Assembly (NCBI GenBank): GCA_001780725.1
Contig: MFIM01000009.1
Span: 656-64,655 of the forward strand
DNA length: 64,000 nucleotides
Direction of reading: 5' to 3'
From: Candidatus Giovannonibacteria bacterium RIFCSPLOWO2_02_FULL_45_28
Lineage (GTDB): Bacteria > Patescibacteriota > Minisyncoccia > UBA11713 > 2-01-FULL-45-33
Part shown: piece after piece, positions 18,589-63,787 of the stretch
Layout of the letters: every line of letters begins with the position of its first letter
Position numbering within the stretch: position 1 is the first letter of the stretch
Notes under the pieces: generated by a model
The model's database searches: none
Told to the model about the DNA's origin: nothing
The model's input: only the letters and a program-made list of their open reading frames with translations
Made by a program: the position numbers and the translations under genes

Positions 18589-19661
18589 AAGACTATTACG
18601 AAATTTTGGGGGTGGGGAAAAATGCGTCTCAAGACGAGATTAAGCGCGCGTACAGAAAGTTGGCGCATGAGCATCACCCCGATAAAAAAGGGGGGGATGA
18701 GAAAAAGTTTAAGGAGATAAACGAGGCTTATCAGATTTTGGGAGACGAGCAAAAACGCCAGCAGTATGATAGGTTTGGCAAGACTTTTGCCGGAGGCGGC
18801 CAATCCGGCTTTTCCGGATTTGAAGGCTTTGACTTTTCAAATTTTGGAGGTGGGTTTAACGCGGACCTAGGCGATATCTTCGAAGATTTTCTTGGCGGGC
18901 TTGGCGGATTTTCCGCCCGAGGCGGACAAGGGCGCAGGCGCGAACGGGGCAGCGATATTTCTTTGGGTATTGACGCATCGTTTCAGGAATCCGTTTTCGG
19001 CGGGAGACGGAGCGTTGTTATTGAAAAAACTTCAAAATGTGAGATCTGCGGCGGCAACGGCGCAGAACCCGGAACTAATCTGAAAAAGTGTGCGACTTGC
19101 CAAGGCACAGGTACCGTCCGCGAGATGCGGCGTTCGCTTTTCGGAGCGTTTACAGCGCTTTCGGAATGTTCTCATTGCCGCGGCAGGGGAGAATCACCGG
19201 AACGCGCATGCAAACATTGCCGCGGAGCCGGGATTTTAAGAAAATCCCAAGGCGTGGAAATTATGATTCCTCCGGGCATTCGCGACGGAGAAGCAATCAA
19301 ACTTACAGGTTTAGGAGAAGAAGTTCAAAGAGGACAAGCAGGAGATCTTTATGTTAGGATTCACGTTTTACCGCATCATATTTTCAGGCGCGAGGGGTAC
19401 GATATTTTGATGGATTTGCATCTGCCGCTTTCAAAAATGCTTTTGGGCGGAGAAGAAATGATAGAAACACTGGAAGGAAAAATTTCGGTGCGTATTCCGG
19501 AGCTTTCCAAAGTGGGAGATTTTCTGCGTCTTCGCGGAAAGGGGGTTCCAAGGGGCAGGGGAAGAGGGGATTTGTTAATAAGGCTTTTTCCCAAGCTTCC
19601 CAAAAAGCTCACGCCGCGGGCAAAAGAAATACTTTCGGATTTGGAGAAAGAGGGGTTATAA
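18585..19661 (+). CDS. dnaJ: co-chaperone DnaJ
   Basis: J-domain with HPD (HHPDKK), a G/F region, and four CxxCxGxG zinc-finger repeats. Confidence 0.9.
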
Positions 19662-20502: not shown

Positions 20503-22869
20503 ATGGTGAATTTTCGGATAAAATTAGCTTTGTTTTTAGTGATTTTCCTCTCTCTCTCTCTCGCACAGGCCAATGCCGCTTTTGACTTTTCTTTTGCCAA
20601 TCTTTCTCAATCCAACTCTCTTGCCTCCGTATGGGAAAATGTAAAAGACGACATACAAGACTCATGGGAAAACATAAAAGAGTGGCTACTTCCCGCTCCG
20701 CCGCCCCCATCAACCCCGCCAGGCGAGCAAAAACCGTCGCCCTCATCAACGCGCGGGAAAACATCCAATGTTGAATCCCCAAAAACATCGGATGTTGAGG
20801 AGCGCGTTTTCCCGGGCAACGATTTCGAAGAAGAAAGCAAGACAATCACATCTGAACAACCTCTCGCAACCGAGCGCGCTCCGGAACGCGTCACAGTTTC
20901 CACTAACGGAATTACAGAAGCTCGTCTTTTGCAGTCGCTCAATGCCTTGCGCGAAGAGCTATTGGATCGCTTCTCGCAGATTATCGTCTCCGCGCCCGCG
21001 CCGCTTACATTTCATGGTCCTGCGGAAACAACGCCTGCTTCCGTCGCTATGCTGGCTTTATCCCAAAGAATCAACAACCTATCCGGCAGTTCCAATTCCC
21101 CGCTTACCATCTCCGGAGCAACTTTCTCCGGCTCCAATACTTTTAGCCTTACGGATGCCGATGTTCCCGACGGCATCACTGCTTCCAGCTATCTCCCGCT
21201 TTCCGGAGGCACGCTCTCGGGCGCGCTTACCGGAACCAATCTTACTCTCTCCGGCAACCTCACCGTTTCCGGAGCTCAAACTCTTTCCGGCGCCATCACT
21301 ATTCCCTATCTCACCGCGACCTCCACCACCCAGCCCTCCACTTTCGCCTACAACGTCGGCATCGGGACGACGAGTCCGTGGGGGTTATTATCAGTACATC
21401 CCGACGGGATTACCGGTCCCGCTTTTGTGGTCGGTTCATCAACTGCAACAAACTTTATCGTAACTAACGGCGGCAACGTCGGGATTGGGACGACGAGTCC
21501 GACGGCGCTATTGCATGTGGCGCATACCACCGATATTAGTAAAACCTTAATTAACGCAACTTATCTCGGTTTCTCCAAATTTAAGTTGAGATACGATGAG
21601 GGTTCTAATTACCACATTTTGGAAATCTTTAACAGCACGCTTGCTGGGTTTGGTATTACTCTTAATGCAACAGATTGGACCAGTCGCACTGTGACAATAC
21701 GGGGACATATTGATGCTTCGATACCGCTGACCGTTCAATCTAATGACAACACTCCATCACTTGACATTTTCCAGGTGCGCAGGAGTGGCACTCTAATAGA
21801 CCTTGTGGTTAATTCAAGCGGCTTTGTAGGCATAGGCACATCCACCCCAAATTGGCTCCTGCAGGCGGCTGGAACGCGTCCGTTTTTTACCCTCTCCGAC
21901 ACCGCGGCGGGAACGGATTTGAAACATTGGTATTTGTCATCTCAAGGCGGCAATCTGTATGTGGGCACCACCACCGATGCCTATGCCACCACCACCAATT
22001 ATCAAGCATTGACTATATTAAATAACGGCAACGTCGGCATCGGGACGACGAGTCCATGGCGCACCTTTTCGGTGGCGGGGACGGTGGGATTCTCTTCTAC
22101 CCTAACTTCTTCTGCAACGGGAGATTACCTTTGCATAAATACCGACACATACGAGGTCTCAAGAGGCGCGGGAAGCATCTGCACCACTTCTTCCGAAAGA
22201 TACAAAGAGAATTTTGAAGAACTCGCCTACGGACTGGATTCCGTACTCAAACTTCACCCAATCTCATTTGAATACAAGCCCGAGCTTAATATCGGCCCAG
22301 GCCGCAGAATCGGTTTCACTGCCGAGGAAGTGATTAATGTCATTCCCGAAGCGGTTGTGCTTGATAAAGAAGGTCTGCCCAGCGGGGTTGAATACGAAAA
22401 ACTAACCGCGGTTTTGGCAAAAGCCATACAGGAGCTTTACCAAAAAATTATCTCGCTTTTTGATAAAGACAAGGAGCAAGATCAGCGCATCGCTGAGCTT
22501 GAAGCGCGTATAAATGCTCTGGAGGGAGGAGCGCCGGCGGCGGATACCTCCGCCTCCGCCGAGGCTTCGGCGGACAAGGAACCCCCGACCATCACCATCA
22601 ACGGCAACAATCCCGCGAGAATAGAAGTCGGCGCGGCATACAGCGACCTTGGCGCAACCGTCACTGATAATGTCAATGACAATCTCGGTATTGAAATGTT
22701 TGTCGGAGAAACGCCCATGGAGCAGGCATATATTGATACGAGCGAACCGAATACTTACCACATCACTTACCGCGCAACCGATCAGGCGGGTAATGTCGGC
22801 GAGGCGGTGCGTACGGTGGAGGTGTATAGCCAAGCGACAACAACTTTATCCGAAATCCCGTCTCCGTAA
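20503..22869 (+). CDS. secreted tail-fibre-like surface protein with peptidase S74 intramolecular-chaperone domain and C-terminal Ig-like (DUF5011-like) domain
   Basis: Signal peptide MVNFRIKLALFLVIFLSLSLAQANA; Pro-rich linker; three-to-four GNVGIGTTSP repeats; SERYKENFEEL..LHPISFEYKP..GFTAEEVINVIPEAV..AIQELYQKI matches the intramolecular-chaperone domain; PPTITINGNNPARIEVGAAYSDLGATVTDNV..HITYRATDQAGN is Ig-like. Confidence 0.7.
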   Translation: MVNFRIKLALFLVIFLSLSLAQANAAFDFSFANLSQSNSLASVWENVKDDIQDSWENIKEWLLPAPPPPSTPPGEQKPSPSSTRGKTSNVESPKTSDVEERVFPGNDFEEESKTITSEQPLATERAPERVTVSTNGITEARLLQSLNALREELLDRFSQIIVSAPAPLTFHGPAETTPASVAMLALSQRINNLSGSSNSPLTISGATFSGSNTFSLTDADVPDGITASSYLPLSGGTLSGALTGTNLTLSGNLTVSGAQTLSGAITIPYLTATSTTQPSTFAYNVGIGTTSPWGLLSVHPDGITGPAFVVGSSTATNFIVTNGGNVGIGTTSPTALLHVAHTTDISKTLINATYLGFSKFKLRYDEGSNYHILEIFNSTLAGFGITLNATDWTSRTVTIRGHIDASIPLTVQSNDNTPSLDIFQVRRSGTLIDLVVNSSGFVGIGTSTPNWLLQAAGTRPFFTLSDTAAGTDLKHWYLSSQGGNLYVGTTTDAYATTTNYQALTILNNGNVGIGTTSPWRTFSVAGTVGFSSTLTSSATGDYLCINTDTYEVSRGAGSICTTSSERYKENFEELAYGLDSVLKLHPISFEYKPELNIGPGRRIGFTAEEVINVIPEAVVLDKEGLPSGVEYEKLTAVLAKAIQELYQKIISLFDKDKEQDQRIAELEARINALEGGAPAADTSASAEASADKEPPTITINGNNPARIEVGAAYSDLGATVTDNVNDNLGIEMFVGETPMEQAYIDTSEPNTYHITYRATDQAGNVGEAVRTVEVYSQATTTLSEIPSP
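20548..20562 (+). repeat. (CT)7 dinucleotide tract inside the signal-peptide coding region (encodes LSLSLS)
   Basis: cctctctctctctctc read directly. Confidence 0.8.
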
Positions 22870-22887: not shown

Positions 22888-22969
22888 TCCGCCCACCAGG
22901 AATCGAACCTGGAACCTTCTCCTTTCCGCCAAAGGACGGATCAGCCTCCGGCTGAAAAAGGGAGCTGCT
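22888..22969 (-). pseudogene. tRNA-Lys-derived 3' fragment (D-stem 3' side to acceptor end) carrying a 31-nt insertion in the anticodon loop
   Basis: T-arm and acceptor identical to the intact copy exactly 100 bp downstream. Shares an identical 57-bp segment (22913..22969) with the 5' fragment at 23343..23399. Confidence 0.6.
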
Positions 22970-22987
22970 TATAGAAACAGCGCTTTC

Positions 22988-23060
22988 TCCGCCCACCAGG
23001 AATCGAACCTGGAACCTTCTCCTTAAAAGGGAGCTGCTCTGCCAATTGAGCTATGGGCGG
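22988..23060 (-). tRNA. tRNA-Lys (anticodon UUU)
   Basis: Folded by hand: 7-bp acceptor CCGCCCA/TGGGCGG, D-arm GCTC..GAGC, anticodon loop CTTTTAA, T-arm CCAGG-TTCGATT-CCTGG, discriminator A. No encoded CCA. Confidence 0.85.
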
Positions 23061-23083
23061 AGGAAGCGCTGTGCTTCCACTAC

Positions 23084-23329
23084 TTAGCTTTTTAATATTT
23101 CATCCAAAAACTTTCTGCCAACGCCGGATTTCAAAAAATTTTCACGCTTTCGAGCATTCGTCTTATCGGCACAACTTTCTTGATACACCAACTCAAACGG
23201 CCCGTTTCTTCTCGTGAATTTATTGGAACCATAGTTGTGTTTCTTTAACCTTTCCCCTGGCAATAAATCTGTGCTTCCTACATAACGCTTACCATTTTTT
23301 AAACTTTTTAATACATATATGTACGACAT
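23084..23329 (-). CDS. GIY-YIG nuclease-domain protein (YazA/YhbQ-like, 81 aa)
   Basis: YIYVLKSLKNGKRYVGSTDLLPGERLKKHN...GPFELVY.E is the GIY-YIG pattern. Confidence 0.7.
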   Translation of the reverse strand: MSYIYVLKSLKNGKRYVGSTDLLPGERLKKHNYGSNKFTRRNGPFELVYQESCADKTNARKRENFLKSGVGRKFLDEILKS

Positions 23330-23342
23330 ATTTTCTTAGCGT

Positions 23343-23434
23343 AACCTTCTCCTTTCCGCCAAAGGACGGATCAGCCTCCGGCTGAAAAAGGGAGCTGCTC
23401 TGCCTCCGCCAGCCGGCGGATGAGCTATGGGCGG
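23343..23434 (-). pseudogene. tRNA-Lys-derived 5' fragment (acceptor to variable loop) with a 17-nt hairpin insertion in the D-loop and a 31-nt insertion in the anticodon loop
   Basis: Reverse complement CCGCCCATAGCTCA[TCCGCCGGCTGGCGGAG]GCAGAGCAGCTCCCTTTT[TCAGCC..GGCGGA]AAGGAGAAGGTT aligns to the intact tRNA-Lys apart from the bracketed inserts. Confidence 0.6.
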
Positions 23435-23535
23435 ATGATTTATTTTAACCCTTTTGGCTAATTTGGGCAAGCTTTGCGTTTTCCGTGCGCACTGGTATAC
23501 GCTTGAGGTAGAGAACCTATTAAAATGAGGTTAAA

Positions 23536-37673: not shown

Positions 37674-39027
37674 TAAAACGCGCACAAGATTTGCCCCAAG
37701 CCCGACGGGATTTTTGCATGTCGGGGGGCTTCGCACTGCGCTTTACAATTATCTTTTTGCAAAGCAAAACGGGGGACAGTTTATTTTGCGGATAGAAGAT
37801 ACCGACCGCGCGCGCCTTGCGGAGGGCGCAGAGAAAAATATTATTGAAACACTGCGGATTTTCGGTTTGGATTTTGACGAAGGGCCGATCAGGCAATCAG
37901 AACGTTTGGAGAGATACAAAGAGCGCACCGAAGAGTTGGTAAAGAAAGGCACGGCTTATCCGGATGCGGGCGCCGTTCGTTTCAAAATGGGAAAAGACGG
38001 CGTAACCGAGTTCACCGATATTATCCGCGGCGAGATTCAAATAGAAAATAAAACGCAGGAAGATTTTGTCATTTTAAAATCAGACGGCTACCCGACTTAT
38101 AATCTCGCGCATTTGGTAGACGACCACGATACGGCAATAACGCACGTAATCAGGGGCGACGAATTTATTTCATCAATGCCGAAATATATCGCGCTGCACA
38201 AGGCGTTTGGCTGGGAACTTCCTCAATACGCGCACCTGCCGTTGATTTTGGATAAAAATCGGGCGAAACTTTCCAAAAGGGAGGGGGAGGTGGCGGTTTA
38301 CGATTTTTTGGATAAAGGTTATCTCAAAGAGGCAGTTTTAAATTTCGTCGCGCTTTTAGGTTGGCACCCAAGCAAATCAGACAAAGAGCTTTTTACTTTG
38401 GAAGAACTGATAAAAGAGTTCAAGCTGGAAGATGTCCAGAAAGCCGGAGCTATTTTTGATATTCAAAAACTGGACTGGATGAACGGAGAGTACATTAGAA
38501 AAAAAACGCCGAAAGAGCTGGTTCGGCTAGCGATGCCGTTTTTGGAAAAGGCAAGATTAACTCTCATCCCAACCCCTCCCCCTTACGAAGGGGGAGGGGA
38601 GAGGGGAGGGGGTGGTTCTTCCTTTTTGGAAAAAATAATCGCTTTGGAACAGCCGCGCCTCAAAAAACTCTCGGAACTTCCTGAAAAAATTGATTATTTC
38701 TTTAAAGAACCGGAATATGATGCGGGCATGCTCAAGTGGAAAAAGATGACGAATAACGAAATCAAAAAATCTTTGGAAACTTCAAAAAATATTTTAGAAT
38801 CTCTCAAAGATAAAGATTTCAACAAAGAAAATCTGGAAAAAGTATTTTTAGAAAAAGCTGGAAACTTGTCCGCCGGAAAGGCGGGAGATAGGGGAGAGCT
38901 GCTTTGGCCATTGCGCGCCGCCCTCACTGGCCGCAAAGCCTCCCCCGGCCCGTTTGAAATAATGGAAATTTTGGGGCAAAAAAAATCTATTACGCGTGTT
39001 CAAATAGCTATTGACAAAATAATTTGA
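37666..39027 (+). CDS. gltX: glutamyl-tRNA synthetase
   Basis: FAPSPTGFLHVGG and KLSKR. Contains an in-frame GC-rich palindrome insert encoding PTPPPYEGGGERGGGGS. Confidence 0.9.
   Translation: MSNKTRTRFAPSPTGFLHVGGLRTALYNYLFAKQNGGQFILRIEDTDRARLAEGAEKNIIETLRIFGLDFDEGPIRQSERLERYKERTEELVKKGTAYPDAGAVRFKMGKDGVTEFTDIIRGEIQIENKTQEDFVILKSDGYPTYNLAHLVDDHDTAITHVIRGDEFISSMPKYIALHKAFGWELPQYAHLPLILDKNRAKLSKREGEVAVYDFLDKGYLKEAVLNFVALLGWHPSKSDKELFTLEELIKEFKLEDVQKAGAIFDIQKLDWMNGEYIRKKTPKELVRLAMPFLEKARLTLIPTPPPYEGGGERGGGGSSFLEKIIALEQPRLKKLSELPEKIDYFFKEPEYDAGMLKWKKMTNNEIKKSLETSKNILESLKDKDFNKENLEKVFLEKAGNLSAGKAGDRGELLWPLRAALTGRKASPGPFEIMEILGQKKSITRVQIAIDKII
38573..38599 (+). repeat. GC-rich palindromic micro-element inside gltX (CCCCTCCCCC-ttacgaa-GGGGGAGGGG)
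   Basis: Read directly. Preceded by AACCCCTCCCCC, a motif shared with 32765..32790 and 62744..62760. Confidence 0.6.
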
Positions 39028-44750: not shown

Positions 44751-46178
44751 ATGACGGTATTGCGCCTTTTCAACTTTCTAACGAGAAAAAAGGAGGTTTT
44801 TAGACCGCTTCGCCGAAATGTCGTGGGGTTTTATGCTTGCGGGCCGACGGTTTATAACTACGCGCACATCGGCAACCTCCGGACTTACATTTTTGAGGAT
44901 GTTTTGCGCCGTACATTGGAATACGCAGGATATAAGGTTAAGCACGTGATGAATATCACGGATGTGGATGACAAAATTATTAAAGGCGCAAACGCGACAG
45001 GCAAAAATATTCATACTTTTTCCGAGCCTTATAAAAAGGCGTTTTTTGAAGACATAAAAAAACTTAATATTTTGCCCGCGTGGAAATATCCGGAAGCCAC
45101 AAAACATATCAAAGAAATGGCCGCGCTGATTCTTAAACTTCTAAAATCCAAGCTGGCTTATAAAGCCGAGGGTTCAGTGTATTTTGATGTCTCAAAATTT
45201 AAAAACTACGGCAAACTCTCCGGATTAAAAAAAAGAGAATTAAAAATCGGTGCGCGGGTTGACGCGGATGAATACGAGAAAAACGCCGGAGAAGATTTTG
45301 TTTTGTGGAAAGCAAAAAAAACTGCGGAGCCAAATTGGCCCGCCCGCTTTGCGGGCGAGGCTCGCCCCCTTTGGGGGCGGCCTGGTTGGCATATTGAATG
45401 CTCGGCAATGTCTATGAAATATCTTGGAGCAAGTTTTGATATTCACGCCGGAGGGGTTGATCTATTATTTCCGCACCACGAAAATGAAATCGCCCAATCA
45501 GAGGGTGCGACAAATAAAAAGTTTGTGAAATATTTTTTGGAGGGAGAGCACCTTTTAGCAGACGGCAAAAGAATGGCAAAATCGGCAGGCATTTTTTTTA
45601 CTTTGCGCGATTTAGAAAAAAAAGGCTTCAGCCCCCTCGCCTTCCGGTATCTTGCGCTATCCGCTCACTACCGTTCACAGCTCAATTTTACCTTGGAGTC
45701 GCTGAAAGCGGCGGGAAATTCGCTGGAGAGGTTATGGGGGTTTGTGAGAATGCTTTCCGGAAGTCAGCAAGTTTTTTCGCGCTTAACCCTCCCTCGAAGC
45801 TCGGGGGGCTCCGACGCGTCTCAAAAACTTACTGACTTCCGTCAGCAATTTAGCTCCGCCATTTTCAACGACCTTAATACTTCAAAAGCGTTGGCTGTGG
45901 TATGGAAAATAGTCAACGAATACAACAAAAAGCCAGAAAAATTTAATGTTGGCGCCGTTTTGAGCCTTCTGTATGATTTTGACAAGGTTTTAGGACTCGG
46001 ATTACGCGAGGTGGTACAGGTAAAACCGACAAAAGAAATTTTAGCGCTTTCCAAAGAGCGCGAAAAAGCAAGAAAAGCCGGAAATTTCGCCGTTGCCGAT
46101 GAAATTCGCCGAAAAATAACGGCTATTGGCTGGCAAATCAAAGATACGCCGTCTGGGCCAGAACTTATTCACGCATAA
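44751..46178 (+). CDS. cysS: cysteinyl-tRNA synthetase
   Basis: CGPTVYNYAHIGN, WHIECSAM and a KMSKS-like RMAKSAG. Contains in-frame GC-hairpin inserts (ARFAGEARPLWGRP). Confidence 0.9.
   Translation: MTVLRLFNFLTRKKEVFRPLRRNVVGFYACGPTVYNYAHIGNLRTYIFEDVLRRTLEYAGYKVKHVMNITDVDDKIIKGANATGKNIHTFSEPYKKAFFEDIKKLNILPAWKYPEATKHIKEMAALILKLLKSKLAYKAEGSVYFDVSKFKNYGKLSGLKKRELKIGARVDADEYEKNAGEDFVLWKAKKTAEPNWPARFAGEARPLWGRPGWHIECSAMSMKYLGASFDIHAGGVDLLFPHHENEIAQSEGATNKKFVKYFLEGEHLLADGKRMAKSAGIFFTLRDLEKKGFSPLAFRYLALSAHYRSQLNFTLESLKAAGNSLERLWGFVRMLSGSQQVFSRLTLPRSSGGSDASQKLTDFRQQFSSAIFNDLNTSKALAVVWKIVNEYNKKPEKFNVGAVLSLLYDFDKVLGLGLREVVQVKPTKEILALSKEREKARKAGNFAVADEIRRKITAIGWQIKDTPSGPELIHA
45340..45377 (+). repeat. 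two GC-rich perfect mini-hairpins inside cysS (CGCCCGC-ttt-GCGGGCG and GCCCCC-ttt-GGGGGC)
   Basis: Read directly. Same class as the gltX and GT39 inserts. Confidence 0.55.
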
Positions 46179-57545: not shown

Positions 57546-59965
57546 AACACCTGATGCCTTTTTCTAATTTCCTCCTCTACTTCTTCGCGGGGGCGGGAAT
57601 ATTTGGAACGCGAGAGCTCTTTTATGCGTTCCGCCGTTTGCGTATTGTCCGCCGTCGCTTGTCTGTAAGGTGGCGTTTTTATGTTGAACGGCTTTGATGT
57701 CTGCCCGTCTATTAAAAGCTTAAGGTAAGCGTTGAAGTTATCAATATTCAGCAAATCCTGCGCGGAAAATACCGGTTGAAACTGCTTTTCCATATATTCC
57801 GCGTCGTCCGAGCCGATGCGGAAAGACAAAATTGATCCGACGTTTCCAAAAACCGCCTTTTTTATCTCTTCTTCCAATTGCCCGATAAATTGGTGCGCAA
57901 TTATAAGATTGAGTTTGTATTTTCTTGCCTCCGAAAGGATGGTGGCAATTGATTTTGTCGTAACGTTTTGAAATTCGTCTATATAAAGATAAAAAGCTCC
58001 GCGTTCCGTTTGCGGCTTGTCCGTGCGGGACAGCGCCGCCATCAAAATTTTCCCTACCATAATAAGGCCCAAAAGGCTGGAATTTAACTCGCCCAATTTG
58101 CCTTTAGAAAGGTTTAAAAGCAAAATCTTCTTTCCGTCCATCACGTCGCGGATGTTAAACGCCGAATGCTCCTGCGCTATAATCGGGCGCATAATTTCAT
58201 TTGCCAAAAAAGTGTCAAATTTGCTTACGATGTAGGGTACCATATTTGCCAATGATTGCTCGCCGCCGGCTTTCTCCGCGATTTGCCGCCAGAAAGTTTC
58301 CACCACGATGTTTTTGGAGCGCGAGAGTTTATGGTCGCGGAAAGATTTGTCGGTCAGAACTCTTTCAATATCCAAAAGAGTGTTGCCGCTTTCCGGATCT
58401 TCCATTACAAGCATCGCGGCGTTCCTGAAATATTGTTCAAACATCGGGCCTCCGGCAATGGACATATTGAAGAGTTTATTAAAAATTTCCAAAAGTTCGT
58501 TGACTATAAGACTGCGCTGTTCCGGAAATCTGGGGTCAAATTCCAGCATATTGAGTCCAATTGGATGCCCCGCGTCCCCGGGATCAAAATAAATGACGTC
58601 CTCCGCGCGCTCTTCGGGTATAAGAGGCAGCACCGACCCGATAAGATCTCCGTGCGGATCAACCACAGCAACCCCATTTCCCTGCTGAATATCCTGAATG
58701 ATCATATTGTGCATAAGGCTGGATTTGCCTGTGCCTGTCTGCCCGATTATATAAAAATGGCGTTCCCTGTCCTCTTTTTTAATATGAACCGGCCGCTCCT
58801 CGCCCCTAAAAGAACTTACACCGAGCATTATGCCTTCTTTGGGTAAATTTATCGGTGCTGCGGCCTCTCTGGCTTTTAGGGTGCGCACCGCAGGCGCAGC
58901 TCTTTTGGAATAAGGCAAATGGTAAACGCTGGCGATTTCTTCAACATTCAGATTTAAAACATGGTTTTCGTCAAATAGCCTGAATGAAAAACGCTCAACC
59001 AGTTTTCGCAGCGCTTTCCCGCCAAGCTCTTTTATTTTAAATTCGCTGCCTTCGGGATTTGTAAACTGGAAAAAACTTGCTCCTAAATTTTTAAGCAAAG
59101 CGTCGGCCCGTTCCGTGGAAGCGGCGGACGCAAGAATGCGAACGTTGCATTCAAACGTTGTTTTGCCGGCTTTCTCTTCAAAAAGCTTGGCCAGCTCCTC
59201 GTCGTATGCGGTTCTTTGGTCTTTGGATTTTTTCTTGCCGGAAAAAATATCCCAAAACACGCTCCAAAATCCGGTTTTACCCAAAACTTCTTTTCGGGAA
59301 ATCCCCTCTTTTAATTTTTGCGCTGCGCTGTGTGCGTGTTTTTTTGTGTTCTCGCTGCCGAATCTTAAAACTATCTGCAAGGCCGCTCCCTCGCCATATT
59401 CTTTAATTTTAGAAAAGGCGGAAGTTATTGTTTCCAAAGGGTCGGCCGCAAGCTTCTGGTAAGTTTTTATCGGTAAAATTTCGGATCCGGAATGCAAAAC
59501 CAAAGCGCCTGCGGTAGCGCCCTCAACGTTAAAAATATTGTAATCCGACACCCTTTCTATTTTGGCCTCCGGAAAGGAGCCGTGAAGCTGGTTTTGGAGC
59601 AGAGATTCATAAATTTTCGGGAACGCAATGTAGAAAAAAATTTCACTCCCGCGGTTGTGAGAAGCGATTTCCATGGCAAAAGACGGATTGCCCCAGAGTT
59701 TGCCTGCAACGCCTTTCTTTTTCGTTTGAACAAGCCCGTTTAAAAGTTGTTCCATTTGCATTATGAAGTTTTTCAACGCTTCCCTTTCATCTACTTTTTG
59801 GGTTCCAACAGCGGTTTCCGGAGCGCTGATTAAATAAAGCGCAAGGCCCAAGCCGGAGCTGACATTGCGGAATTTTTTCGCGCGCCGATAGAAAAAAACG
59901 GAAAACAGCCAAAGCAAAATTGCCAGCAAGATAAAAAATATAATATAAATGGTTGCGGCGTTCAC
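57542..59965 (-). CDS. membrane-anchored VirD4/TraG/TraD-like type IV coupling protein family ATPase
   Basis: N-terminal TM; Walker A YIIGQTGTGKSS; Walker B LYIDEFQN; 807 aa. Confidence 0.5.
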   Translation of the reverse strand: MNAATIYIIFFILLAILLWLFSVFFYRRAKKFRNVSSGLGLALYLISAPETAVGTQKVDEREALKNFIMQMEQLLNGLVQTKKKGVAGKLWGNPSFAMEIASHNRGSEIFFYIAFPKIYESLLQNQLHGSFPEAKIERVSDYNIFNVEGATAGALVLHSGSEILPIKTYQKLAADPLETITSAFSKIKEYGEGAALQIVLRFGSENTKKHAHSAAQKLKEGISRKEVLGKTGFWSVFWDIFSGKKKSKDQRTAYDEELAKLFEEKAGKTTFECNVRILASAASTERADALLKNLGASFFQFTNPEGSEFKIKELGGKALRKLVERFSFRLFDENHVLNLNVEEIASVYHLPYSKRAAPAVRTLKAREAAAPINLPKEGIMLGVSSFRGEERPVHIKKEDRERHFYIIGQTGTGKSSLMHNMIIQDIQQGNGVAVVDPHGDLIGSVLPLIPEERAEDVIYFDPGDAGHPIGLNMLEFDPRFPEQRSLIVNELLEIFNKLFNMSIAGGPMFEQYFRNAAMLVMEDPESGNTLLDIERVLTDKSFRDHKLSRSKNIVVETFWRQIAEKAGGEQSLANMVPYIVSKFDTFLANEIMRPIIAQEHSAFNIRDVMDGKKILLLNLSKGKLGELNSSLLGLIMVGKILMAALSRTDKPQTERGAFYLYIDEFQNVTTKSIATILSEARKYKLNLIIAHQFIGQLEEEIKKAVFGNVGSILSFRIGSDDAEYMEKQFQPVFSAQDLLNIDNFNAYLKLLIDGQTSKPFNIKTPPYRQATADNTQTAERIKELSRSKYSRPREEVEEEIRKRHQVL

Positions 59966-60351
59966 TTGATTTTTCTGGCTTGAAGTAGCTTTTCGTAATA
60001 TTTGTCCGTCAAAGTGTCGTGGAATTCGTCTAGAAGGTGCGGGTTTTTAAGAGAGTTGACGACTTTAAGCGCGGATACAATTCCCTTTGTTAGTGCCAGC
60101 GAAACGAGCTCTTCAATAATGTGCGCGTGTTCCTGCTCCTTAAGGTCGTAGGCGGCTTTTTGGGCGGCGTCATCCGAAATGGAAGGCGTCGGCGGCGGTC
60201 CGCCGGTTGGCGGATGCGCGGCTTCACGTATCGCTTCGCGCACAATCTCTTTTTCGTGCTTTGCCTCGCCGCGTCCGGCAAGCTCCTTTTTTCTGGCCTC
60301 CAGCTGTTCTTCCAGCCATTTTATTTCCTCATGTACGGATTCCTGGGGCAT
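59962..60351 (-). CDS. hypothetical protein translationally coupled to the coupling-protein-like gene
   Basis: 4-nt overlap with the downstream gene start; Pro/Gly-rich middle region. Confidence 0.4.
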   Translation of the reverse strand: MPQESVHEEIKWLEEQLEARKKELAGRGEAKHEKEIVREAIREAAHPPTGGPPPTPSISDDAAQKAAYDLKEQEHAHIIEELVSLALTKGIVSALKVVNSLKNPHLLDEFHDTLTDKYYEKLLQARKIK

Positions 60352-62063: not shown

Positions 62064-63787
62064 ATAAATACGCGAATTATTTAGCAATTTTGATGCTCGC
62101 GATAATGTTTGCGCTGATGTTTGGGTCAAGCATAAATGATTCGGCGATTTTTGATGAGGTGGCGCATATCGGGGCGGGATACACATATTTGAAGTATCAA
62201 GACGGAAGGCTGAATCCGGAGCACCCACCGCTTTTGAAAAGTTTGGCCGCGTTGCCACTTGTGTTTCTGAATTTGAAATTTGACCAAGGACAGCAATTTT
62301 GGACAATAGAAAATGTGAACGATCGGCAATGGCTTGCCGGCAATCACCTTCTATATGAAGCTGGCAACGATGCAGATCAAATTCTTTTTTGGTCGCGATT
62401 GCCAATGATTTTGCTAACTATTCTTTTTGGGTGGATTTTGTTTTGGTGGGTAAAAAGGCGCTATGGAGCGAGAGTGGGATTGCTTACTTTATTTTTCTTT
62501 TCCGTCTCTCCTACTTTTTTAGCGCACGGAAGATATGTTACAACCGATGTCGGAGCCGCATTCGGATTTTTTCTTGGAATCATTTTTTTTCTAAAGTTTT
62601 TGGAAAGGTGGGATTTAAAATCAGCAATTTGGCTAGGTATAGTACTGGGGTTTGCCCTGCTTCTTAAATTTTCGCTTGTTTTATTGCTGCCGGTTTATTT
62701 GATTTTGGGAGTTTTTCGGATATTTCTCGGTCGCAGAAAAGATAACCCCTCCCCCCAACCCACTCCCCTAGGGGGAGTGGGGAATTGGGTGGGGTTCCTC
62801 TCATTATTGGGGACACTTGCTTTCTCCAGCCTCATTGCTTTAGCCATCGTTTGTATCGCTTATATCTCCCAAATCTGGAATTATCCTCATGACCAGCAGA
62901 TAAAAGATTCGCGCTACATTCTTGCGGGCTACCAATATCAATCTTTGGCAAAACTTGATTTTTGGCTTACAGAACACAAGCTAACGCGGCCGCTAGGGCT
63001 TTACTCGCAGGGCTTTTTGATGGTTGCGCGGCGCACTGCCGGTGGAAATACGGCTTACTTTATGGGCGAGGTTTCTTCAAAAGGATGGTGGTCATATTTT
63101 CCGACTCTGGCAATCACAAAAGAACAGCTTGGGTTTTATATTTTAGCGGCGGTGGCGATTTTTTGGGCAATAAAAAAACGAGCAAAGCCGGATTTTGTAA
63201 GTTTATCTGCAATTGTTTTTATAATCTTTTATTGGATTTCTTCAATTTTAAATCCGTTAAACATCGGTGTGAGGCACGTGCTCCCGACTTTTCCGTTTTT
63301 ATATTTTTTAGTGGCGAAAGAATTATCTGAAATAAAACTGAATTTGTTAACCGTAGTTATAATGCTATGGATGATTGTGGAAATAATTCTAGCTTTTCCC
63401 TACTATCTTTCTTATTACAACGCGCTGGGAGGCGGTTTGCAAAACGGCTACAAAATCGCAACTGATTCCAACCATGACTGGGGGCAGGACTTAAAACGCC
63501 TCCGCGATTATGTGGAAAAAAGTAATATTTCAAAAATAAATCTTGATTATTTCGGAGGCGGTTCACCAAAATATTATCTAGGAGAAAAATATGAAGGCTG
63601 GTGGTCATCGCGCGGCGCTCCTCCTGCCGGCTCTTATTTTGCCGTATCGCTTAATTCTTTGACCGGCAACCAAGCCAAACCGATCGGCGATGTGCAGATC
63701 AAGCCGGAAGACACCTATTCTTGGCTCAAAAACAAAACCCCGATTGCTCGGGGTGGAATATCTATTTTGATATTTAAGATAGATTAA
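62060..63787 (+). CDS. second GT-C glycosyltransferase family 39 (ArnT/PMT-like) paralogue
   Basis: DEVAH..GY..HPPLLK N-terminal motif, multi-TM. In-frame GC palindrome insert at 62744..62800. Confidence 0.7.
   Translation: MNKYANYLAILMLAIMFALMFGSSINDSAIFDEVAHIGAGYTYLKYQDGRLNPEHPPLLKSLAALPLVFLNLKFDQGQQFWTIENVNDRQWLAGNHLLYEAGNDADQILFWSRLPMILLTILFGWILFWWVKRRYGARVGLLTLFFFSVSPTFLAHGRYVTTDVGAAFGFFLGIIFFLKFLERWDLKSAIWLGIVLGFALLLKFSLVLLLPVYLILGVFRIFLGRRKDNPSPQPTPLGGVGNWVGFLSLLGTLAFSSLIALAIVCIAYISQIWNYPHDQQIKDSRYILAGYQYQSLAKLDFWLTEHKLTRPLGLYSQGFLMVARRTAGGNTAYFMGEVSSKGWWSYFPTLAITKEQLGFYILAAVAIFWAIKKRAKPDFVSLSAIVFIIFYWISSILNPLNIGVRHVLPTFPFLYFLVAKELSEIKLNLLTVVIMLWMIVEIILAFPYYLSYYNALGGGLQNGYKIATDSNHDWGQDLKRLRDYVEKSNISKINLDYFGGGSPKYYLGEKYEGWWSSRGAPPAGSYFAVSLNSLTGNQAKPIGDVQIKPEDTYSWLKNKTPIARGGISILIFKID
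62759..62781 (+). repeat. GC-rich palindrome CCCACTCCCC-ta-GGGGAGTGGG inside the second GT39 gene, preceded by AACCCCTCCCCCCAACC
   Basis: Read directly. Encodes DNPSPQPTPLGGVGNW. Confidence 0.6.

Follow-up and report, generated by a model that had tools for sequence, protein, structure and literature searches.

A probable homing-like tRNA-Lys cassette combining conserved hairpin repeats with a minimal GIY-YIG nuclease gene in Patescibacteria and other bacteria

In phage T4, SegB is a free-standing GIY-YIG homing endonuclease gene found in a tRNA region (PMC2330249, PMC13096335). Short GC-rich palindromes of another kind, the REP/REPIN sequences of bacteria, go together with the RAYT enzymes (PMC8049555), and yeast mitochondria harbour GC clusters, of which GC42 is one element (PMC4478555). 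Patescibacteria are known for group I introns inserted in tRNA anticodon loops, at positions 35/36 (PMC13011429). The locus described here recalls each of these systems. It is read on the minus strand of a 64-kb stretch of Candidatus Giovannonibacteria DNA (Patescibacteria, also named candidate phyla radiation), the whole of which is called the window below. A disrupted tRNA-Lys gene with two structured inserts encloses there a small nuclease gene and an intact tRNA-Lys gene. A sequence-only reading had proposed that the inserts could be small tRNA introns, or members of a GC-rich palindromic insertion family also seen inside protein genes of the window. They are more probably DNA-level copies of a conserved hairpin repeat, which belongs to a selfish, homing-like tRNA-gene cassette.

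The disrupted tRNA-Lys(UUU), hereafter the outer tRNA, is present as two pieces. Its 5' part (23343..23434) contains positions 1-48 and both inserts. Positions 1-14 (23434..23421) are followed by a 16-nt hairpin in the D-loop, TCCGCC-GGCT-GGCGGA (the palindrome TCCGCCGGCTGGCGGA, 23420..23405), then by positions 18-36 (23404..23386), by a double hairpin (hh) lying between 36 and 37, TCAGCC-GGA-GGCTGA plus TCCGTC-CTTT-GGCGGA (the 31-mer TCAGCCGGAGGCTGATCCGTCCTTTGGCGGA, 23385..23355), and by positions 37-48 (23354..23343). An open reading frame (ORF) for an 81-residue, single-domain GIY-YIG nuclease (23329..23084) has its start codon 13 nt past the end of this piece. The intact, inner tRNA-Lys(UUU) comes next (23060..22988), as identified by ARAGORN and by the Rfam tRNA model with 68.5 bits, and is presumably a functional tRNA-Lys copy. 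An 18-nt spacer separates it from the outer 3' part (22969..22888), which covers positions 23-73 and includes a second, identical 31-mer (22955..22925), for which the number of matches expected in shuffled sequence is 0. The two outer pieces thus overlap through a 57-nt direct repeat made of tRNA positions 23-36, hh and positions 37-48 (copies 23399..23343 and 22969..22913). All parts of this module lie on one strand; its size is about 0.55 kb, and it contains no recombinase.

The description of the inserts given by the sequence-only reading was accurate in its details. The D-loop hairpin had been described as a 17-mer in place of ATTG, and this 17-mer corresponds to the 16-mer plus the G at 23404; the same change may also be worded as a 16-mer in place of ATT (positions 15-17), directly before G18 G19. 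The 31-nt insert was correctly placed at 36/37, where the junction is unambiguous, since no other split restores CTTTTAAGGAGA. All flanking segments match the intact tRNA-Lys at 100%, in agreement with the identity noted earlier, and the predicted folds are those that had been claimed, one 6-bp hairpin for the D-loop insert and two for the 31-mer (z = -3.3 and -3.0, respectively). Three features are new with respect to that reading, namely the 81-residue GIY-YIG ORF, the 57-nt direct repeat and an extension of the acceptor helix by about 12 bp, formed by the flanks of the inner tRNA.

Homologues of the ORF product, 65-85% identical, are found across Patescibacteria and Omnitrophota, and 74 loci from GTDB genomes were fetched (L013-L086). 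The phyla represented among them include Patescibacteria, Omnitrophota, Bacteroidota, Ignavibacteriota, Chloroflexota, Marinimicrobia and Kiritimatiellia, and one locus (L069) comes from a cultured organism, Luteirhabdus pelagi, where a tRNA-Arg fragment interrupted by a hairpin lies on one side of the GIY-YIG gene and an intact tRNA-Arg on the other. The association with tRNA genes is very regular: an intact tRNA gene on the same strand, at most 150 nt downstream or 100 nt upstream of the GIY-YIG ORF, was observed in 63 of the 74 loci, with 21 anticodon types. Most of these loci also contain, on the far side of the ORF, a fragment of the same tRNA, broken near positions 17-21 or 34-37. A multiple alignment of the window with six other genomes reveals a common order of the building blocks: the outer tRNA 5' part, hh, positions 37-47/48, the nuclease gene, a leader, the inner tRNA, a trailer, positions from 23 or 27 to 36, a second hh and positions 37-73. 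The anticodon-loop insert is thus a constant part of the module, because hh holds the same place throughout this seven-genome alignment. In these seven genomes, the similarity starts exactly at the 5' end of the outer tRNA and stops exactly at its 3' end, and the flanking sequences are unrelated.

Comparison of the outer and inner tRNA sequences gives insights into how the module reaches its sites. In L014, the two outer halves match each other (acceptor strands CCGCCCT/AGGGCGG) and share a T7-A66 pair, and the inner tRNA has A7-T66 instead. In L029, the outer halves are of the CCCCCCA/TGGGGG type, unlike the inner tRNA, which is that of the window; the module-side pieces flanking hh are of the inner-tRNA type, as would be expected if repair had been copied from a donor with co-conversion of the flanks. 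Import of the module into a resident gene is evident from these sequence types in at least two genomes. Outer and inner sequences are indistinguishable, or nearly so, in four loci including the window. Hairpin-interrupted tRNA pieces also form tandem arrays, with or without a nuclease gene. Fragment-plus-GIY units are repeated in L048 and L060, three tandem 3' units of a tRNA-Leu, each with hh, are found in L083 (1811..2054), and four tandem 5' units with hh in L122 (2480..2790). Such arrays look like repeated rounds of the same event, or like unequal exchange.

The repeat itself has a well-defined form, TCAGCC-NNN-GGCTGA plus TCCGCC-NNN-GGCGGA. Hairpin 2 is close to the reverse complement of hairpin 1, loop 1 being purine-rich and loop 2 pyrimidine-rich, so that a unit of about 15-16 nt is usually found followed by its own reverse complement, as a conserved nested palindrome of 30-31 nt. 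In the upstream fragment of 11 tRNA-Lys loci from other genomes, hh stands directly after the last anticodon base as TCAGCC-RRA-GGCTGA plus TCCGCC-NNN-GGCGGA, with conserved stems and variable loops. Across lineages, the stems vary in a compensatory manner (TCAGCC/GGCTGA, TGAGCC/GGCTCA, CCTGCC/GGCAGG, TGTGCC/GGCACA, CTCGCC/GGCGAG, TTCGCC/GGCGAA). Inserts were also defined without any reference to hairpins, as breaks in the succession of matches to the adjacent tRNA, over the 74 GIY-YIG loci and the window. Fifty inserts were obtained in this way, with a modal length of 30 nt; other lengths include 20 nt (a single 8-bp palindrome) and 63 nt (four hairpins). Nearly all are located in the D-loop (16/17 to 22/23), in the anticodon loop (34/35 to 36/37) or in the T-loop. 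A strict double hairpin is present beside the nuclease ORF, within -260/+360 nt, in 38 of the 74 loci, and the density of such double hairpins in this interval is 1.39 per kb, versus 0.02 per kb elsewhere in the same loci, which corresponds to an enrichment of about 70-fold. The nested palindrome looks alike on both DNA strands, a symmetry that recognition at the DNA level fits better than recognition at the RNA level. Of note, the C-terminal tails of several annotated GIY-YIG proteins (P0089, P0101, P0111, as well as those of L024 and L134), such as RVSAEGGSASG or SVSAKGGPASGGG, are read-through of a downstream hh, and the N-terminal extension of P0111 looks like a translated upstream tRNA. 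Such peptides in databases may thus serve to mark the repeat.

The distribution of hh extends well beyond the module. At least 120 matches to the consensus 30-mer were found in metagenomes, and it is also present on 10 stretches of viral-class contigs (IMG/VR, L207-L216). Its contexts are the loops of tRNA fragments (in either orientation), the apices of other palindromes, AT-rich short tandem repeats and tandem arrays, and 82% of the consensus copies among the instances listed are far from any tRNA or GIY-YIG gene. The flank consensus is YT-hh-RA. Direct repeats of at least 5 nt flank 21% of the copies, versus 2.5% in a shuffled-partner control, and none is seen at tRNA sites. Solo copies in AT-rich DNA may be bounded by direct repeats of 6-7 nt, for example GATTTTT-hh-GATTTTT and AATTCCT-hh-AATTCCT (L092, L104, L107, L139, L140, L154, L163 and other metagenome loci); these solo copies often stand inside short tandem arrays of the same 7-8-mer. 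The direct repeats could be target duplications or footprints. When compared to miniature inverted-repeat transposable elements, which have terminal inverted repeats and a target-site duplication of fixed length, hh is palindromic throughout.

The nuclease belongs to Pfam family PF01541 (E = 2e-14), and its catalytic domain fills residues 1-68 of the 81-residue chain; no separate DNA-binding domain for the recognition of a long target is present in this protein. The closest solved structures are 1zg2 and 1ywl, both minimal UPF0213 proteins, followed by SLX1. Residues Y5, Y16, R27, H31 and E63 are invariant in 26 homologues, and we take them to be equivalent to Y6, Y17, R27, H31 and E75 of I-TevI. 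The enzyme is probably active, because these residues of catalytic type are invariant. The family comprises 1,790 clusters at 50% identity (E <= 1e-10), and no relatives were found in phage and plasmid collections. The prokaryotic Slx1-like branch is described as the minimal form of GIY-YIG enzymes, without auxiliary domains (PMC1564403). Recognition of a structure rather than of a long sequence would suit such a minimal nuclease, because it has no DNA-binding domain, and structure-specific recognition would be a natural guess by analogy with the known Slx1.

Another structural feature of the module is a helix by which the acceptor stem of the inner tRNA is lengthened. In the window, its arms are 12 nt long: the leader ACAGCGCTTCCT (23061..23072) pairs with the trailer AGAAAGCGCTGT (22977..22988), whose first base is the discriminator A73. 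The extension measures 12-17 bp across genomes and was recognized in the window and in L014, L017, L019, L023, L025, L029 and L030, where the flanking sequences differ completely and their complementarity is kept. Over 13 nt on each side in these eight genomes, 95% of the cells are paired and 14 of 20 pairs have changed in a compensatory way; none of 500 shuffles reaches the observed pairing, and slid registers give 37-52%. L013 has neither a 3' half nor this helix. The leader-trailer helix may act in RNA, as a folding clamp or an RNase III site, or in DNA. Concerning expression, a promoter-like site, TTGCCC-17-TAAAAT (23442..23470), lies just upstream of the outer tRNA start and could, on the weak evidence of a match to the consensus, drive the whole module. 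A second one, TTGGCA-16-AATATT with an upstream TG (23094..23121, minus strand), is located in the 3' end of the nuclease ORF, about 33 nt 5' of the inner tRNA; from this consensus match, it could permit transcription of the inner tRNA independently of the nuclease gene.

These different elements can be assembled into a putative mechanism. The cassette interrupting the outer tRNA-Lys consists of hh, positions 37-48, the GIY-YIG gene, a complete replacement tRNA-Lys held on the leader-trailer helix, the spacer, positions 23-36 and the second hh. The anticodon-loop 31-mer marks both junctions with the target broken at 36/37. The nuclease would recognize hairpin or cruciform DNA, either hh or the loop-coding DNA of tRNA genes, and break it. 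Repair from a cassette-bearing copy, with the outer tRNA halves as homology arms, would then install the module in a new tRNA gene. The inner tRNA would supply the tRNA-Lys function and keep the cell alive, and no splicing would be needed, because an intact tRNA lies inside the module. Because of the hh copies and the secondary hairpins, the outer halves would share with the inner tRNA no uninterrupted homology longer than 19 nt, and a cassette lost by recombination between the two hh copies would leave a dead tRNA behind. Short homology and a dead tRNA upon loss would together favour retention of the cassette. The cleavage, repair-copying and retention steps of this scheme are all inferred.

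Several observations weigh against this scheme. No empty site was found at the locus, all contigs with the neighbouring gene sharing the same structure. Nor could a syntenic relative be reached through this neighbour, a 267-residue amidinotransferase-like protein, the next homologue of which is only 68% identical and lies on a 1.5-kb contig. In L030, the outer 5' half differs in type from both the outer 3' half and the inner tRNA. The inner tRNA holds an uninterrupted copy of the presumed target, and its immunity is unexplained. Simple homing does not account neatly for these mixed halves of L030 and this uncut inner tRNA. Only two hh copies are found in the 64-kb window. Among the 139 hh instances listed, just 7 have a GIY-YIG gene at a distance of 400 nt or less, and 25 an intact tRNA at such a distance. 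The repeat may thus spread by another route, and its link with GIY-YIG genes could be one-sided.

Among the other explanations, the intron one would imply that the inserts, as introns of the bulge-helix-bulge type or of a new type, maybe with trans-joining, are excised to give a second functional tRNA-Lys. It has some appeal, since one insert is found in the anticodon loop, beside the canonical intron site and next to the position of the group I introns known in Patescibacteria; moreover, both inserts are structured, with clean boundaries, and the surrounding tRNA segments are perfectly conserved. In a bulge-helix-bulge intron, of the archaeal and eukaryal type, the exon-intron boundaries lie in two 3-nt bulges with a 4-bp helix in between. 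The search for such a splice motif, suggested along with the sequence-only reading, yielded instead a three-way junction, in which the anticodon stem meets the two 6-bp hairpins; no such bulges are seen in the fold of the reconstructed gene or in that of the anticodon arm with its insert, and this type of intron was rejected. A group I intron has a conserved P1-P9 ribozyme core, to which the Rfam Intron_gpI model responds, and typically exceeds 200 nt. It was rejected as well, the insert being only 31 nt long and Rfam finding the intact tRNA alone, both at the gathering threshold and at E <= 1. Neither interrupted piece could yield a tRNA after excision, because both are truncated; they cover only positions 1-48 and 23-73, overlap by the 57-nt repeat, and have an intact tRNA between them. 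Joining of the halves in trans could not be general, because many related loci, such as L013, have no 3' half at all. A full-length tRNA-Lys with the insert (D-arm, insert and T-arm in one piece) was sought in 241 million metagenome records, with 0 matches, and the same 30-mer is found in non-tRNA DNA too, in either orientation. In silico removal of 190 double-hairpin blocks and 1,112 single ones, followed by a new ARAGORN run, restored one genuine full-length tRNA; the other 11 calls are natural tRNA-Ser variable arms or weak calls on fragments. The restored gene is a tRNA-Val(UAC) of L082 (640..755), which has hh at 8/9 and immediately follows another tRNA-Val(UAC), intact and different from it; this is the sole complete hh-bearing tRNA gene found. 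The intron explanation is not supported and appears extremely improbable. If the cassette explanation is right, hairpin-interrupted tRNA pieces of this type should not be annotated as intron-containing tRNAs. As a separate matter, the motif CUGAU-CCGCC...GGCGG-AAA resembles the CUGAUGA...GAAA core of hammerhead ribozymes. This identity was rejected, as the essential G8 and A9 are both replaced by C, the CUGA is buried in hairpin 1, and no Rfam match is obtained.

It could also be argued that the hairpins act mainly in RNA, as folding insulators or processing signals rather than as nuclease sites. If one transcript spanned the two outer halves together with the GIY-YIG mRNA and the inner tRNA between them, hh would hold the redundant tRNA pieces in inert local hairpins, and the leader-trailer helix would clamp the inner tRNA for correct folding and processing, for example by RNase III and RNase P. 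The covariation of this helix does indicate selection for pairing around the inner tRNA, compensatory changes are seen in the hh stems as well, the outer 5' half has a promoter-like site ahead of it, and all parts are on one strand. Hairpins in DNA would conserve pairing equally, however, and this explanation does not account for the restriction of the inserts to the loops of broken copies; hh, in addition, reads alike on both strands, is found in both orientations relative to tRNAs and is mostly remote from tRNA and GIY-YIG genes. A function mainly in RNA is considered unlikely; it would not exclude the DNA-level cassette, with which it is compatible. According to a third possibility, the inserts would be neutral, resulting from independent slippage or fold-back events in a dead tRNA pseudogene unrelated to the nuclease gene. 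Non-functional fragments indeed tolerate insertions, the D-loop hairpin is lineage-specific, and unrelated hairpin-rich inserts are present in other fragments, such as the D-loops of L017 and L018 and the T-loops of L014 and L023. For the 31-mer, this is already contradicted by its presence, almost unchanged in sequence and at one and the same tRNA position, in 11 other genomes and in the two halves of every module, by the recurrence of double hairpins beside GIY-YIG genes across phyla and tRNA types, with the local enrichment mentioned above, and by the absence of stem decay in the window fragments, which retain 100% identity. Neutral origin of the inserts as a whole is thus highly improbable. 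Finally, the repeats might have been mis-joined by an assembler. Several contigs do stop within the locus, or pass into a loop of 3'-unit copies, as is typical of repeat-induced graph tangles. The chances of such an artefact are practically nil, since at least six contigs, produced by different assemblies and pipelines (NCBI, JGI, ENA), agree at every base of the whole locus and the same architecture recurs in unrelated genomes; the inserts are thus real. Some other contigs break or loop inside the repeats of the tRNA-Lys locus. The metagenome contigs L007-L010 and L012, in particular, end in repeated copies of a unit made of the trailer and the 3' fragment, which are probably assembly-graph loops due to the duplicated tRNA pieces but may be real tandem variation.

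The D-loop hairpin appears to have a history of its own. A near-identical hairpin occupies the same place in one further tRNA-Lys fragment of L030; none of the other six module-bearing genomes has it in the outer 5' part, and one of them, L017, has a different D-loop insert of 38 nt. To judge by this distribution, the dead 5' half received the 16-mer later, as a secondary, lineage-specific insertion of one unit. The corresponding 16-mer of L030, TCCGCCGGTTGGCGGA, has an exact match in the window at 60199..60214, inside a 129-residue ORF (59962..60351, minus strand) where it encodes ...PPTGGPP...; it differs from the D-loop hairpin of the window itself by one loop base (two mismatches over the 17-mer). 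In the window, 11 units of the hairpin family were counted for 4.3 expected, and 14 for 4.7 in another count, a modest enrichment that does not make the window rich in this family. The proposal of a GC-rich palindromic insertion family is supported and much extended in one respect, the 31-mer being a conserved repeat found at the same tRNA position in other genomes and tied to GIY-YIG genes; its other part, by which the protein genes of the window carry the same hairpin family, is weak.

Some hairpins of the window are worth describing individually. In the cysteinyl-tRNA synthetase (CysRS) gene (44751..46178), a double hairpin rich in GC, CGCCCGC-TTT-GCGGGCG ... CGCCCCC-TTT-GGGGGCG, is found at 45341..45379, immediately ahead of the conserved GRPGWHIEC motif; with respect to the solved homologue 8qhp, it overlaps an insertion of only 5 residues. 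TCCGCC...GGCGGA hairpins are present in the coding sequences of DnaJ (18912..18926, in the G/F region, SARGG) and of a 788-residue surface protein (22549..22574, SASAEASA), and could either belong to the same family as single units or have arisen by chance in Gly/Ala-rich regions. Long palindromes with C/G tracts are found at 38573..38599 (CCCCTCCCCC-TTACGAA-GGGGGAGGGG) and at 62759..62781 (CCCACTCCCC-TAG-GGGGAGTGGG). They may represent a second hairpin family serving as a target for hh, because a similar palindrome in L097 (cctcccc...ggggagg) has hh in its apex.

If the cassette is what it seems to be, it gives a context to proteins annotated as 'hypothetical' or as 'GIY-YIG nuclease family' (about 1,800 clusters at 50% identity), which would reside in tRNA genes together with a rescue copy. 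It would also account for recurrent broken tRNA fragments and contig breaks in the genomes of uncultured bacteria, define a widespread 30-nt nested-palindrome repeat, and provide a natural, testable example of a minimal nuclease, guided by structure, that behaves as a mobile element. Such an example would bear on gene-drive-like 'hostage' strategies and on how homing endonucleases may have arisen from Slx1-like repair enzymes. A bolder proposal is that of a natural 'cleave-and-rescue' selfish element. A structure-guided, Slx1-like GIY-YIG enzyme would break essential tRNA genes and spread with a replacement tRNA, the junction hairpins would make loss lethal to the tRNA gene, and the same nuclease would disperse the 30-nt hh in Patescibacteria, Omnitrophota, Bacteroidota, Chloroflexota and other phyla, as a counterpart of the REP/RAYT pair built on another type of enzyme. 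This complete picture is tentative, and we would rather doubt it in its entirety. No published description of the module was found in the open-access full-text literature, and one may exist elsewhere.

SegB is among the closest known systems. In both cases, a GIY-YIG gene lies among or inside tRNA genes, and spreading is presumed to involve a double-strand break and copying together with flanking tRNA sequence. A link between SegB and the segmental amplification of tRNA loci has moreover been made, and the tandem units of L048, L083 and L122 are reminiscent of it. In contrast, SegB is encoded by a phage, has a DNA-binding region and cuts at a defined site, whereas the cassette nuclease is a bare 81-residue domain encoded in the chromosome of uncultured bacteria. 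The cassette also differs by its position inside a split tRNA gene, by its whole replacement tRNA and by the hairpin repeats that bound it.

The likeness to REP/REPIN sequences and RAYT lies in the repeats, which are short, GC-rich, mostly solo and apparently numerous palindromes, and in a single nuclease-type gene flanked by them. The association appears asymmetric in both systems, with many repeats for few genes. RAYT proteins are, however, HUH/Y1 enzymes of the IS200/IS605-like type, whereas the cassette enzyme is a GIY-YIG nuclease; hh is a tandem hairpin pair forming a nested palindrome rather than two inverted REPs, shows a strong preference for tRNA-gene loops, and is present in only 2 copies in the window. 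Mitochondria provide a further parallel. Paquin et al. (2000) reportedly described double-hairpin elements in Allomyces, as did Yin et al. (1981) PstI palindromes in Neurospora (both cited in PMC4478555), GC-rich palindromes being found there beside tRNA genes, and the Allomyces atp6-ORF360 is said to be a mobile endonuclease ORF carrying a replacement gene end. Such elements share with hh a GC-rich, mobile-looking palindromic or double-hairpin form, a size of about 30-45 nt, a structure under selection and a location in intergenic DNA and structural RNA genes; mobile endonuclease ORFs with a replacement gene end accompany some of them. They differ in being organellar, with no sequence similarity to hh; they are not known to have a dedicated Slx1-like nuclease, nor to be nested systematically, along with a rescue tRNA, in the loops of tRNA genes.

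The group I tRNA introns of Patescibacteria occur in the same phylum and in the same loop (35/36 there, 36/37 here), and both kinds of insert escape standard tRNA finders. These introns are self-splicing, hundreds of nucleotides long and contained in full-length genes, whereas the hh insert has 31 nt, no ribozyme core and truncated halves only. Integrative elements targeting tRNA genes likewise leave, upon insertion, an intact tRNA and a displaced partial copy as a direct repeat. They rely on integrases, usually enter the 3' end of the gene and extend over kilobases, in contrast to a cassette of about 0.55 kb without recombinase, which breaks its target in the D, anticodon or T loop and has hairpins at its junctions. 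The cassette works like a free-standing homing cassette combined with a REP/RAYT-like pair of repeat and nuclease, and its repeats look like the mitochondrial GC clusters and double-hairpin elements; it departs from a defining trait of each of these three, having no DNA-binding domain and being neither of the HUH type nor organellar.

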